Below are positions 3,001 to 9,000 of a stretch of 64,000 nt of DNA, piece after piece. Made by a program: the position numbers. Origin of the DNA: Escherichia coli. GTDB lineage: Bacteria > Pseudomonadota > Gammaproteobacteria > Enterobacterales > Enterobacteriaceae. Location: NCBI RefSeq assembly GCF_003018115.1, contig NZ_CP027457.1; one strand, given 5' to 3'. The stretch's first letter is position 1; every line of letters begins with the position of its first letter.

Positions 3001-6000
3001 TCTTCTTCGTCGTAATAAAACACCGCGTTGCTGAACTGATAATTGCCGTGCAGCACCGCTTTATGCACCAGTTTGCCGTGTTCCGGCTGATCCACGGGGC
3101 GCTTCATCAGTTCATCAAGGCCGTTGCGCGCCACTTTTGCCTGCTGCCAACGCGAGAGCACGCCGGATATCTGCGACAGCGGCGCGATGGTACGCGAAGC
3201 CAGGATCGTCGTCCCGACCAGCGCACCGGTGGTCATGTCGCCGTTCATCACCATAAAGCAGCCCACCAGCAGCACCACCACGTAGACGATGGATTGCACT
3301 TCCTGGGTCCAGGTGAGCAGCAGCCCAGTGAGAAAACGTTGCTTCATGCTGATGGACGAGGCCACGTCGTTGGTGTGGTTCCACTGATTCTGAAAACGCT
3401 GTTCGGCGCGCAGCAGCTTAATGTCTTCAATCGACTGCACGGCTTCCACCAGCGTAGCATTACGCACCGCCGACTCGCGCATCCCTTCGTTCGCCAGCCG
3501 CGCCAGCGGGCGTTGCACCAGCAGGCCGGGGATCACCAATAACGGCAGCGCCAGCAGAACCACCAGCACCAGCCAGCCGCCGATCATCCACAAAATAAAA
3601 ACAAACAGCAGGAAGAATGGCAGGTCCGCCACCGCGCCGATGGTGGTGGACGTAATAAGCTCCCGCACTGATTCCAGCTCGCGGATCTGTGAGATAAACG
3701 ATCCGGTGGATTTCGATCGCACGTTGTTTTTCAGCCGTAGCGCATGACCAAAAACGCGGTCCGAAATGCGCAGATCCGCCCGCTTGCCAATCATATCCGA
3801 GAGATGCGTGCGCACCATGCGCATACAGAACTCAAACAGGATCGCCATCATTACCCCGGCGAACAGCACCCACAGCGTCGGGTAGGATTGCGCCGGAACC
3901 ACCCGGTCGTAAACCTGCATCGAGAAAATCATCGCCGCCAGCGCCAGCACGTTCGCCACCAGTGAGGCCAGCATAATATCGCCATAGCGCCGCCAGTCTT
4001 TTAGCGACAGACTCCAGAACCAGTTCGCCTGATACGGGCGAATATAGTCATCCACCCGCGCGTCAGGGATGGCGCTGAGCGGGCGCAGCAGCGCCAGTTC
4101 GACGATTTTGTCTTCAATATCCGCGATATTAAGCGTGGTTTCCAGCCCTTCGTCACCGCTGAACTGAACGCTGATATTGTCGTAATTGTCGCGGCGGGTG
4201 ATCACGCCAATCTGTTGATTATCAAACACCGCGATCAGCGGCAGCCGCCAGGGGTTAAGCGAGTCGGCGGAAAACTCCACCAACCGCAGCCCCATCCCCA
4301 ACTGCCGCGCCATATCGGTAAGCAACTCTTCCCGCTTGCTGTCGCGCTCCCAGTTGACGGTTGCGCGCACGTTCTCCTGAGAAAAATCAAGGCGATAATA
4401 GCGCGCCACGGCGATCATCGCCTCCAGCCAGGCTTCCACGGACTGGGCATTTTTTTTCATTATCTACACCACCATCAACTGATGATTCGCCAGCAAAGTG
4501 GCGAGGTCGGTATGCACGCCCGTCAGCGTGACCACGTTAGTTGCCGCAAAAGTGCCGCCCGTGCCGTCGCGGTCGATCTGCACGATGGTGTCGCTGCCGC
4601 TCTGGATGACTTTGACAAAATCACCGATGTTTCCGGCCTGCGCATCCAGCGTCGCCACACCGTTGACGTAGCTGGCTTTGCCGTTGCCGGTGTAGCCGCT
4701 GCCCTGCAACAGCTCGCGGATATCAATGCGATCGGTGTCGGCGGTGCCTTCCCAGGTGCCTACCGTAAAACCATTCACCACATCCGATCCGTTGCCGCCG
4801 GTGGCGTCGCTGGCGTTGAGCAGTTTATAGAGCAAGGTGTCGTGGCCGCCGTTGCCGATGTTGAGCGTGTCGTTGCCGCCGCGCCCTTCCAGTTGGTTAT
4901 CGCCGCTGCTGCCGGTCAGAGTGTCGTTAAAATTCGAGCCGGAAATACCTTCGATATTGGTAAATGTCGAGGTGTTAAAGCCGGTGGCCTGCGCGGCAGT
5001 GCTGCTTAAGTTCGCGGTCACGCCCACCGTCGAAAGCCGGAAATCAACCACGTCCATCCCGCCGTTCGCCAGCCACGTTCCGGTGCCGGAGCTGTACACC
5101 CAGCCGCCGGAACCGTCGTAAGTGTCGGTGCCTGCGGTGGCAAAGAAGGTGTCGTTATAGCCCGTGCCGACGAACTTGCCGTTATTGCTCGCCGTACCTG
5201 CTTCGGCGCTGAGGTCGTAAGCGTGGGTGGCATCTGTCGCCTGTAAACCGCCCCAGGTGGTATTGACTGTCTGGTCGATATTGCTGGCGGTGGTGCCGGT
5301 GGATTTGATCAGCACCGCGTTGTAGGTTTCTCCGGCATTCAGCCCGTAGAAGTTGACCAGCGCCGAGGTGTCGTTAACCCCCATACCCGACTGCGGGTTA
5401 ATAATTTGCGTGGCGACCAGCACTCCCGCCGAGTTGTACAGCTTCACGGTATTGCCGTAATAGACGTTAATGCCGTTGGGATCGGTGATGCGCAGGTGTA
5501 GCGAAGTGCCGTAGCTCACCGTGTTGGTGTTGCGGATCAGGAACACGCTGCCCGACTGTTTGGTCACCAGCACATCCACCGCGCCGTCCCAGTCGTAGTC
5601 CATTGCCGCCACGCCGCTGGTGGTACCGCTCTGGCTGCCGCCGAGGGCTGATTGTGTCCAGTTGCTGGCACCACCAACGTTGGTGTAAAGATACGATTGT
5701 CCGGTCTGGGCGATACGGGCGATATCCATCAGGCCGTCATGGTTCCAGTCCACCGCCAGGCTAAACTGGCTGGCGTAGGTGGTTGCCGTTGCGCCCACCG
5801 CCACCGGGCTACCCAGTACGCCGTTGGTGTTGAATAACAGCGAGCCGTAGTTAGCTCTTCCCTGGCTGGCGGGCAGGAAGAGATCCATATCGCCGTCACC
5901 ATCGAAATCGGCCCAGGTCATGGAAACGCTGCTGCTCATAGCGCCACTACCCGCCCCGCTCAAGAAGGTATTGGTGGTGTTCTGCCCCCAGACAAACGTC

Positions 6001-9000
6001 CCATTCCCCTGGTTGATGAGCGAAGATAGCGTGTAATAGTTGTTCAGGTTGTAGGTGTGCTGAACCAGGTCGATCCTGCCGTCATTGTTCAGATCGACGC
6101 CAGAACCTTCGTTGAGCGAAAGATACCCCGTCACCGCCCCGCCCACCGTGGCGCTACCGCCGCTGTTCGACGTGGTGGAGTTACCTACCAGCGTACCTGC
6201 GTTGTTCCACAGGAAGGTGTTGGAGTCCGGCCCGCCCGCGTCGCCAATCCAGAAGTCGAGATAGCCGTCGCCCTCTTTATCAAATGCCACAATCGAGCCG
6301 TACCACGTCAGGGTGCCGACGGTGACCTGAATAGCGCTGGAAAAGGTGCCGTCGCCGTTATTGGTAAAGCCGTTGATATAGCCTGTACCGTAGTCATCAC
6401 GAGTGATAAACAGATCGCCCGTGCCGTTACGGTCGTAATCGGCGATGGAGCTGGTGGCGTAGTTGTTGCCGCTCTGATACAGCGTCAGCGCGGTCTTCGA
6501 CCAGGTGAGTGGGTCAGTCGATTGCATTACCTGCTGGTTTGCCAGCACCGTCCACATCCCGTGCGAGTCGAGGCCGTAGGTCAACCCCCAGGCGGTGGTT
6601 TTGCTGGCGGTGGTCCAGGTCGGTGTGTAATCAATCGCCGCGTTAACCGTCACCGTGCCGTTGCTAATATTGGCGTTATTGCCGTTACCCGCCGAACTTT
6701 TTACCTGCGCAGTAACGGTATAGGCGGTCGCGGAAACTGTCAGCCCATCGTTATCCGGCAACTGTACATACCAGGTGTTGTGCGCCGGATCGACCACTAC
6801 CGCGCCGCCCGGTTCAGAGGTGTAGGTTTTGCCGTTGATCACCACTTCAACATACTGCCCACTGGCAAGCGCGGCGGTGATCACCCCGCTGATAATCGGC
6901 GTAGTATCGCGCGTGGTCTGGCTGGTGATTTGCGCCAGCGTGGTCGGAATAGAGGTATCGACCGTCAGGACAAAATCACTGGAGGAGGTGATATTCCCCG
7001 CCAGATCCACTACCCGCGCACTGTAGGTATAGGCACCGCTAACCAGCCCGCTGTCGCTGTAGGTCCAGTTCAGCGCGCCGACCATCGTCACCGCACCTAA
7101 CAGCAGGCCGTTACGGTAGAGATAGACCACTTCACCGCTGGCAAGCGGCGCAGAGAGCACGCCGTTTAACAGCGGCGTGGTATCGTCAGTGGCCTGCGAA
7201 CTGCTTAACGTTCCCTGCCGCTGCCCGACATCATCGGTATACGACACAATAGTTGGCGTGGCGGTGGGGTTAATCGTATCAACTACCACCGTTTTTGATA
7301 CCACCGGGCCGGTGTTACCCGCCAGATCCAGCACCCGCACCTGATAAACGTAGCTGCCGTCGGTCAGCGTGCGGCCGTCGGTGTAAGTCCACTGCGTGCC
7401 GTTAGTGGTGAGGGTGATCCAGGTCGCGCCGCTATCAAGGCTAATCTGCGCCACTTCGCCGCTGGCAAGCCCCGCCCCCAGCGAACCAGTCAGCGTGAGC
7501 GTGGTATCGCTGGTGATAAAGTCAGTTGCCGAACTCCCCGTGTCGGTGCTAATGCTGGCGATGGTGAGCACCTGCGCCGGGTTAACGGTGTCAATCTGCG
7601 CCGACTGGCTGCCGGTTGCGCCAACGTTGCCCGCCAGATCGACAACCCGCACCTGCCAGGTGGTGGTGCCGTTGGTGAGCGTGCGCCCGTCAACGTAACT
7701 CCAGTTAAGGCCGTCTGCGGCAACGGTCACGTTCACCCAGGTTGCGCCGTTGTCGGTACTGATTTGCGCGAACTCATTAGCGCCGAGCGCCGCGCCCAAC
7801 ACGCCGCGCACGGTAAGCGTGGTGTCGCTGGTAATAAAATCGCTGCTGCTGGTTCCGGTGTCATCGCTGATGCCGGTAATGGTGATACTTTTCGCCGCTT
7901 CCGGGCTGGTGGTGTCGACCACCACGTTTTGCGTTGCGGTCTGCCCAACGTTCCCCGCCAGATCCACCACCCGCACCGTGTAGTTCCAGGTGCCGTCAGT
8001 AAGCGTGCGACCATCGGCATAGCTCCAGCTGGTGCCGATAACGGTTAACGTAGTCCAGGTGACGCCGCCGTCGAGGCTGATTTGCGCCCGTTCATCGGCG
8101 GCAAGCGCCGCGCCGAGCGTGCCGCGCACGGTCAGCGTGGTGTCGCGTGTAACAAAATCGCTGCTGCTTAACCCGGTGTCATCGCTGATGCTCGCAATGG
8201 CGATGGTTTTGCTCGCCAGCGGCGCGGTGGTATCCACAGTGACTATCTGGCTGGCGGTCGCGCCGATATTTCCGGCGGTGTCGATCACCCGCACCTGGTA
8301 GTTGTAGTTGCCATCGGTCAGCGTACGCCCGTCAAGATAGCTCCAGGTCAAACCGCTTACCGAAAGATTCTGCCAGGTGGTGCCGCCATCAATGCTGATT
8401 TGCGCGAACTCACCGGCAGAAAGCGTCGCCCCCAGCGTGCCGCTCACCGCAAGCGTCGTGTCGCTGGTGACAAAATCGTTAGTGATCAATCCGGTATCAG
8501 TGGTGATCGCGCTGATGGCGATGGTTTTCACTGCCGGATCTGGCGCGGTAGTGTCGATCACCACGTTCTGGCTGTCAGTGGCACCGACGTTGCCCGCCGC
8601 GTCAATCACCCGCACCTGATAGAGATAGTTACCATCGGTCAGCGTGCGGCTGTCGTTATAGCGCCAGGTCGTGCCGGTAACGGTAAGCGTGGTCCAGGTT
8701 AAACCGCCGTCGATACTGATTTGAGCCGTCTCGTTACTGGCAAGCGCGGCGGTGAGCGAGCCGTTGACCACCACCGGGCTGACGCTGGTGATAAAGTCGC
8801 TGGCGCTAAGGCCAGTGTCGGCTTGCAGGGAATCGATATTAATGCCCATCGCCGGAGCGCTGAGATCGACGGTAATGGTGTGATTACTGCTACCGGTGTT
8901 GCCAATGGCATTGCTCACCGAGGCGTTAATCACGTAGGCGTTGCCGTCCGCCAGCGCGGTGACATCGGCGCTGCCGAGGGTGTAGCTCCAGCTACCGCCC

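Follow-up and report, generated by a model that had tools for sequence, protein, structure and literature searches.

A CRTAC1-like propeller module as the candidate ligand-binding head of the giant Escherichia coli adhesin SiiEA

The gene siiEA of Escherichia coli encodes a giant adhesin, and the question it raises is which part of so long a protein grips the host. It was examined here in a window of 64,000 nucleotides (nt) from E. coli (contig NZ_CP027457.1 of RefSeq assembly GCF_003018115.1), the window being the whole stretch of DNA analysed. The gene found there is E. coli siiEA, the adhesin of O-island 28 (OI-28) of enterohaemorrhagic E. coli (EHEC) O157:H7, and it lies beside its own TolC, ATP-binding cassette (ABC) and HlyD secretion genes. 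On the basis of (i) a beta-roll of repeats-in-toxin (RTX) type together with a type I secretion system (T1SS) signal, (ii) adjoining genes for ABC, membrane-fusion and TolC-like proteins, and (iii) tandem calcium-stabilised immunoglobulin (Ig)-like extender domains, the product is an RTX-type adhesin, with a head of an uncatalogued type for which ligand binding is plausible by analogy. The C-terminal module, a propeller followed by a sandwich, is the best candidate for the host-gripping part of SiiEA. The order of domains in the protein is a BapA-type N-terminal prefix, ~58 calcium-stabilised Ig-like extender repeats, the propeller, the sandwich, the RTX block and the T1SS signal (Table 1).

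The propeller, the sandwich and the secretion tail

The initial annotation of this DNA had described an FG-GAP (VCBS-type) calcium-blade propeller, with RTX repeats and a C-terminal secretion signal after it, a structural reading which proved correct by both domain calls and structural models. All six of the motifs which it quoted are present in the translation of the open reading frame (ORF) 4464-25241. They had been described as evenly spaced at roughly 660 to 360 residues from the C-terminus, and were found between 657 and 377 residues from it with gaps of 53, 62, 62, 53, and 50 residues. The pattern D-x-[DNE]-x-[DN]-G-x-x-[DE] has six matches in the whole protein, all within one 355-residue stretch, while shuffling of this stretch 5,000 times gave a mean of 0.006 matches and a maximum of one. 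Six blades carry one such motif each at the tip, with Dx[DN]xDG and an acidic residue two positions further on, and all liganding positions of all six motifs are invariant or nearly so among 29 homologues of 29–65% identity. The motifs match the "calcium blade" of Rigden et al. 2011 (PMC3123361) and the loop-AB motif of Pereira and Lupas (PMC8023676), in whose VCBS supercluster the propeller belongs. They are predicted Ca2+ sites.

A Pfam scan of the tail identified three matches to FG-GAP_3 (formerly VCBS; PF13517) with E values of 2e-9 to 2.5e-7 (7.6e-10 to 8e-8 in the scan which took in the homologues), each covering two blades, as well as two matches to Big_13 and one to HemolysinCabind. 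FG-GAP_3 was present in 29/29 homologues; FG-GAP proper (PF01839) was found in 8/29 at E<=0.001, and in the window protein reached only E 0.004–0.011. Structure prediction with AlphaFold2 on the 29-homologue alignment returned a propeller fold, with a mean predicted local distance difference test (pLDDT) of 89.2 and a predicted template modelling score (pTM) of 0.91. The model consists of six four-stranded blades, with the motif placed between strands A and B of each, and three N-terminal strands (module residues 6–26) without a motif. By the count of its structural neighbours the propeller would be seven-bladed, with six calcium blades. Of the extent 4464-6450 given initially, the part comprising the RTX repeats and signal was retained and the start was not, as the propeller begins at ~nt 6554, ~100 nt upstream, because a first blade lacking the motif precedes calcium motif 1.

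The relatives of this fold were sought with both the model and the sequence. With the model, Foldseek identified CRTAC1 (1e-13), followed by the N-acetylglucosamine (GlcNAc) lectins PVL and PAL, integrin alpha chains (E ~1e-7) and UmbA4, a lectin of Streptomyces, in complex with teichuronic acid. A search of the PDB with the sequence profile of the module matched CRTAC1 (6e-11) and integrin alpha-4 (1.3e-7).

A conserved beta-sandwich, matched by no Pfam or NCBIfam model, separates the propeller from the RTX block and had been overlooked in the initial annotation. Structural alignment to CRTAC1 extends over 388/446 residues, beyond what a propeller of ~345 residues can supply, and AFDB neighbours named "CRTAC1 family" or "ASPIC/UnbV" have TMq values of 0.70–0.74 over the whole module, compared with ~0.5 for propeller-only lectins. 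From this aligned length and these TMq values, the sandwich is very probably the counterpart of the UnbV/ASPIC domain of CRTAC1, and at the level of fold the propeller and the sandwich after it have the CRTAC1 architecture. Assignment of the sandwich to UnbV_ASPIC (PF07593) by sequence was rejected, with no Pfam match at E<=10 in the window protein or at E<=0.1 in the 29 homologues. No NCBIfam CRTAC1 or sandwich model matched the module, and a sandwich-only profile had no match in the PDB. Since no UnbV_ASPIC sequence match was obtained, the module is called CRTAC1-like and is not filed as a member of the CRTAC1 family.

The RTX repeats had been expected at approximately nt 4770–5170, where a degenerate block was indeed found. 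It is matched by Pfam HemolysinCabind (E 1.7e-4) and, using phmmer, by the RTX region of CyaA (E 1.4e-3), with only ~2 of its 8–9 nonapeptides fitting the strict consensus and its G/D columns being invariant among 16 homologues. A model of the last 700 residues, built on these 16 homologues (pLDDT 84, pTM 0.86), has short strands with a period of nine residues at model residues 531–579, and this period shows a beta-roll in the predicted structure. The high pTM suggests that the four head domains form one compact unit.

The secretion signal anticipated at the extreme C-terminus was identified by NCBIfam TIGR03661 (E 2.2e-9; score 38.4 bits, cut-off 17.6). Its terminal A-LLANHQ motif is invariant in the 16 homologues, and the C-terminus as a whole (...TDLATLLANHQLxVV) is nearly so. 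Within the last ~18 codons (4467-4520) the motif ..TDLATLLANHQL(M/L/I)V(V/A) is almost invariant, even though the homologues are 38–68% identical overall, and this motif could serve as a recognition element for the LssB/LapB-type transporter.

On the other side of the head, the extender domains match the BIg50-52 structure of Salmonella SiiE (2yn3; E 5.5e-8, PDB), and NCBIfam Ca_tandemer was found at residues 166–260 of the last 999 aa.

Table 1. Features of siiEA and its secretion genes in the window (positions in nt; aa, amino acid residues of SiiEA)
Feature	Position	Strand	Details
HlyD-family T1SS periplasmic adaptor	1126..2301	-	NCBIfam TIGR01843, 328 bits (cut-off 209)
T1SS ABC permease/ATPase, LssB/LapB subfamily	2298..4460	-	NCBIfam TIGR03375, 838 bits (cut-off 693)
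siiEA	4464..25241	-	Single ORF, 6,925 aa
C-terminal head	4464-6566	-	Propeller, tightly associated sandwich, degenerate RTX beta-roll and T1SS secretion domain
T1SS C-terminal target domain and secretion signal	4467..4784	-	Last ~105 residues; ends ...TDLATLLANHQLMVV; stop codon 4464-4466
Degenerate RTX nonapeptide block/beta-roll	4773..5168	-	aa 6692-6823; GTGYNDTFF to GGNGSDVVN, with an inserted loop
Beta-sandwich (~100 aa)	5229..5531	-	aa 6571-6671; all-beta in the model, pLDDT >90; in the place of CRTAC1's UnbV/ASPIC domain
FG-GAP/VCBS beta-propeller	5532..6554	-	aa ~6230-6570; six predicted calcium blades and an N-terminal closure blade without motif
Calcium motif 6, DYDWDGAVD	5574..5600	-	aa 6548-6556; D323, G328, D331 of the module invariant (29 homologues)
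Calcium motif 5, DWNHDGLMD	5724..5750	-	aa 6498-6506; D273, G278, D281 invariant (29 homologues)
Calcium motif 4, DFDGDGDMD	5883..5909	-	aa 6445-6453; D220, D224, G225, D228 invariant (29 homologues)
Calcium motif 3, DLNNDGRID	6069..6095	-	aa 6383-6391; D158, G163, D166 invariant (29 homologues)
Calcium motif 2, DKEGDGYLD	6255..6281	-	aa 6321-6329; D96, G101, D104 invariant (29 homologues)
Calcium motif 1, DYDRNGTGD	6414..6440	-	aa 6268-6276; D43, R46, G48 invariant or nearly so (29 homologues)
Last Ig-like extenders, immediately preceding the head	6684..7448	-	aa ~5932-6186; Pfam Big_13 x2, E 7e-9 and 1e-7
TolC-family outer-membrane protein	25350..26705	-	451-aa ORF; first gene of the island

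Relatives and distribution of the module

CRTAC1 (cartilage acidic protein 1; mouse structure 9etn) and the bacterial CRTAC1/ASPIC-UnbV proteins have only 15–16% identity to the module, which in SiiEA is embedded in a T1SS adhesin of 6,925 aa. The C-terminal EGF-like domain of vertebrate CRTAC1 is absent from SiiEA by Pfam, with RTX repeats there instead. We know of no ligand for the bacterial CRTAC1 family. Integrin alpha chains belong to the same superfamily, having seven blades and DxDxDG calcium loops that join strand A to strand B, and alpha-4 and alpha-V were matched by the profile at E 1e-7 to 1e-3; however, integrins possess 3–4 calcium blades, compared with the six predicted for SiiEA, and the thigh and calf domains and the beta-subunit partner have no equivalent in SiiEA, the resemblance being limited to the propeller. 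The propeller lectins, namely the fungal PVL and PAL (GlcNAc, sialic acid), the bacterial BP39L, PLL, and CV39L, and UmbA4 of Streptomyces, are 12–17% identical and alike at fold level only. Unlike the SiiEA module, they have no sandwich and do not belong to fibre adhesins.

When the module (aa 6226-6671) was used as query against 1.84 billion representative proteins, 10,096 matches were obtained at E<=1e-3, with 113 of these at E<=1e-30. Giant Ig-repeat adhesins from many Proteobacteria contain the module, the named homologues being from Enterobacteriaceae (Enterobacter, Citrobacter, Atlantibacter, Dryocola, and Huaxiibacter), Acinetobacter bereziniae, Zestomonas/Pseudomonas, Diaphorobacter, and Micavibrio. 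Separate homologue searches with the module and with the sandwich alignment yielded short E. coli fragments almost exclusively. Of the 58 full-length matches, 40 have the module ending 241–262 residues from the C-terminus (usually ~254), in proteins ranging from 684 to 6,925 aa. Three proteins (P0003, P0004, and P0009) carry two to three copies of the propeller and sandwich, including internal ones distant from the RTX tail, which indicates that the module is an autonomous unit.

Free "head-only" secreted proteins of ~740 aa (P0014 and P0160) were considered and rejected, as their contigs show them to be the 3' ends of giant BapA_N/Big_13 genes that have been split. Entries of this size named "VCBS/FG-GAP repeat-containing protein" are gene-caller splits of BapA_N/Big_6/Big_13 giants (for Diaphorobacter sp. 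HDW4B at 1-12220, with a second locus at 3-5232), whose pieces have been called as overlapping or adjacent ORFs. The nearest homologue outside E. coli, with 65% identity in the module, has been deposited as Vagococcus sp. WN89Y. This record is probably a contaminated or mislabelled assembly, because a Gram-positive genus is an implausible host for a T1SS/TolC adhesin.

Possible functions of the module

Giant T1SS adhesins of similar build are known. MpIBP, LapA, FrhA, and AhLap resemble SiiEA in being giant T1SS substrates with Ca2+-stiffened Ig-like extenders (PMC7493085), and likewise have a non-repeat module just before the RTX beta-roll and signal and a dedicated operon for ABC, membrane-fusion and TolC proteins; LapA has a retention module at its N-terminus, where SiiEA has the BapA-type prefix. 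RTX adhesins carry their ligand-binding domains just before the RTX block (PMC7493085; bioRxiv 10.1101/2025.09.30.679566). The catalogued head domains are vWFA, CBM/PA14-like, peptide-binding and ice-binding domains, and no propeller is listed in the survey (bioRxiv 10.1101/2025.09.30.679566). The "VCBS" repeats of Achromobacter and Aeromonas RTX adhesins were considered as propellers and rejected, being extender repeats of ~100 aa. Salmonella SiiE and BapA are, like SiiEA, giant enterobacterial Ig-repeat T1SS adhesins, the BapA_N prefix being present in SiiEA. To our knowledge, published accounts of SiiE and BapA deal with BIg domains only. Orthology of SiiEA with SiiE was rejected on the basis of its different locus, the lack of siiA and siiB, its BapA-type N-terminus and a similarity confined to the Ig domains.

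By analogy with these adhesins, the propeller and sandwich of SiiEA are, on balance, favoured as its ligand-binding head. The module is the sole globular part other than Ig-like domains before the RTX block, and the fold relatives of its propeller include lectins. Between genera, the propeller is also the part of the cassette that is conserved least, at a mean identity of 40% (sandwich, 57%; RTX block, 62%; C-terminal domain, 63%), which fits an adaptive, ligand-facing role. OI-28, which has been reported as a Ca2+-responsive, RstA-activated T1SS/RTX system (PMC12758282, Gut Microbes, December 2025), is required for adherence, as its deletion lowers epithelial adherence at 3 h and reduces mouse colonisation; Ca2+ increases adherence (PMC12758282). 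That account describes RTX repeats and Ig-like domains only, with FG-GAP, VCBS, and propeller unmentioned. A glycan as the ligand of the head is a good deal less certain and should be regarded as doubtful.

T1SS substrates leave the cell unfolded and C-terminus first, and RTX repeats fold upon meeting extracellular Ca2+. SiiEA would be exported in this manner through its own TolC/ABC/HlyD system, its propeller being unfolded in the low-Ca2+ cytoplasm and folded outside the cell; a need for Ca2+ in six of seven blades fits such a route. In the millimolar Ca2+ outside, the beta-roll and the six calcium blades would fold to give a compact head of ~75 kDa, which the ~58 calcium-stiffened Ig-like repeats would hold far from the cell, on a stalk with a length in the order of 250 nm at ~4.5 nm per repeat (by analogy with PMC7493085). 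There the propeller and sandwich would engage a ligand on a surface, with a glycan or glycoprotein as the likeliest kind, resulting in the adherence reported for OI-28. It is proposed tentatively, and with less assurance than the head function itself, that the CRTAC1-like calcium-blade propeller and sandwich may represent a separate, uncatalogued class of ligand-binding head among BapA-type T1SS giant adhesins across the Proteobacteria, the receptor determinant of OI-28 early adherence in EHEC O157:H7 and other E. coli, and possibly a Ca2+-dependent lectin.

Several observations weigh against a ligand-binding head. The OI-28 phenotypes (PMC12758282) are effects of the whole island or whole gene, and are not tied to one domain. 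The relation of the sandwich to UnbV/ASPIC is one of fold. No LapA-type retention module was detected, the BapA_N and adhesin_SiiEA models alone matching the N-terminus (NCBIfam, E<=0.01), and neither lapD nor lapG was found within the island; SiiEA is presumably anchored by its N-terminus, and its C-terminal end would hence be membrane-distal. Among E. coli isolates from guinea fowl, cattle, pig, baboon, frog, human, and water, the propeller is 97.7–100% identical at the protein level, with ratios of nonsynonymous to synonymous substitution (dN/dS) of 0–0.19 and without host-associated alleles. Diversifying selection among these alleles was thus rejected. By these rates the propeller is under purifying selection within E. 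coli and does not behave there as a diversifying specificity determinant, so that any ligand would probably be common to the E. coli niches sampled. Finally, the fixed distance from the C-terminus in 40 of the 58 matches indicates a single cassette inherited together with the secretion tail, which also fits a role in folding or secretion.

Such a role, in which the propeller and sandwich are mainly an aid that folds on emergence, stops back-sliding and caps the fibre while adhesion comes from the Ig-like repeats or elsewhere, is unlikely, yet it is the most serious of the alternatives. Besides the usual distance of ~254 residues, it agrees with the predicted calcium dependence of six of the seven blades, with the high pTM of the four-domain model, which suggests a rigid unit with the beta-roll, and with the strong purifying selection within E. 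coli, and certain RTX adhesins are without any ligand-binding region (bioRxiv 10.1101/2025.09.30.679566). However, most RTX adhesins lack such a domain and are secreted all the same, and the extra internal copies of the module are distant from the RTX tail. The propeller evolves faster between genera than the sandwich, RTX block, and signal, which is unexpected for a purely mechanical part, and ~450 residues would be a large investment for a cap. Were the module only a folding aid, the finding would be an ordinary one.

It is less probable again that the head mediates contacts between bacteria or with the matrix (autoaggregation or biofilm, as for Salmonella BapA) and not the binding of a host receptor. 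The BapA-type N-terminus and the NCBI name "BapA-related" point this way, as do homologues in the environmental Acinetobacter bereziniae, Zestomonas, Diaphorobacter, and Micavibrio and the occurrence of the same E. coli alleles across very different hosts and water isolates, but deletion of OI-28 impairs epithelial adherence and mouse colonisation (PMC12758282), and biofilm data for the OI-28 locus were not found in the literature. An enzymatic role for the propeller, such as the polysaccharide lyase or dehydratase activity of some calcium-blade/VCBS propellers, is very improbable: its fold neighbours include aldos-2-ulose dehydratase and lactonases, and rhamnogalacturonan lyase is a calcium-blade propeller (PMC3123361), but these matches are at fold level only (6–14% identity), the residues that do not vary occupy the repeated structural and calcium positions, and no enzyme family hidden Markov model of Pfam or NCBIfam was matched.

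The siiEA locus and the significance of the head

The identity of the gene was established with the NCBIfam model adhesin_SiiEA (NF047714; a 229-residue N-terminal model), which the window protein matches at 504.4 bits compared with a cut-off of 425; NCBIfam also matches its BapA_N prefix and its Ca_tandemer Ig-like repeats (48+10 stretches). In collinear E. coli loci of 98% identity the RefSeq name is "BapA-related adhesin SiiEA", the gene name siiEA having been coined by analogy (PMC3256949). The 3' region of the gene is 98.4% identical to E. coli chromosomes, and 957 of the 5,426 complete E. coli genomes contain it, each in a single copy. Downstream of siiEA are the ABC transporter gene, the HlyD adaptor gene and cueR, and upstream are the TolC-family gene, ybaT, glsA, and copA, the last being 100% identical to copA of E. 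coli GF3-3. The TolC call is based on a gene of equal size annotated as TolC family in the collinear loci of GF3-3 and O157:H7 Sakai. In Sakai the same island is ECs_0540-0544, in the interval from ybaT to cueR, and corresponds to OI-28. The G+C content of the T1SS genes and siiEA (window 2000-24000) is 58–63%, compared with ~48–53% in the flanking core genes (the cueR side, ybaT, glsA, and beyond), a contrast in keeping with horizontal acquisition of the island and its insertion between ybaT and cueR.

Disrupted or mis-assembled copies of the giant gene are frequent. In Sakai (locus 11355-31823) it is annotated as two ORFs, ECs_0541 (1,461 aa) and ECs_0542 (5,291 aa), with the propeller, RTX block, and signal on the second piece only. 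This split is due to one in-frame nonsense codon ("SDN*" compared with "SDSE" in the window, at codon ~1462, ~nt 20856-20858), beyond which the frame is unchanged, so that rtxA28 and rtxB28, the "two RTX proteins" of PMC12758282, are one interrupted gene. Elsewhere siiEA has been flagged as a pseudogene in some complete genomes, being frameshifted in E. coli AR_0013 and RM19259, the latter also having an internal stop. In one of 958 genomes with a match, E. coli ETEC1738 (5106-7544), only window positions 6920-7463 were matched, the siiEA coding sequence begins directly after the HlyD gene and the ABC transporter gene is not annotated. A deletion appears to have removed the propeller, the sandwich, the RTX block and the signal, together with the 5' portion of the ABC gene.

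A comparison of the 3' end (window 4464-7463) with six E. coli loci gave a mosaic of synonymous substitution rates (dS), which against GF3-3 were 0.03 for the propeller, 0.20 for the RTX block, 0.17 for the Ig-like part and 0 for the signal domain, which suggests recombination between siiEA alleles. Beyond cueR, the neighbourhood holds a second adhesin, as collinear E. coli loci (14531-15547; 36276-37292 in Sakai) contain a small gene for a YadA-family autotransporter adhesin and hypothetical lipoprotein genes; its location lies partly outside the start of the window.

In the literature searched for siiEA or for a propeller in RTX adhesins, no description of the SiiEA propeller domain was found. 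Automated annotation already tags SiiEA fragments as "FG-GAP repeat domain-containing" and the domain is thus known to databases, while the CRTAC1-like architecture, the cassette nature of the module and the idea that it may be the OI-28 adhesion determinant appear to be absent from that literature. With a globular module of ~450 residues singled out as the candidate receptor-binding part, the question of the receptor becomes directly testable, and the SiiEA head offers a defined target for anti-adhesion approaches. A propeller type would be added to the repertoire of RTX-adhesin heads, which has so far consisted of vWFA, CBM/PA14, and peptide-binding types, and the poorly understood CRTAC1/ASPIC-UnbV architecture would be linked to bacterial adhesion. 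If the proposed head class is borne out, it would give a first point of entry to the function of the CRTAC1/ASPIC-UnbV fold that is widespread in bacteria.

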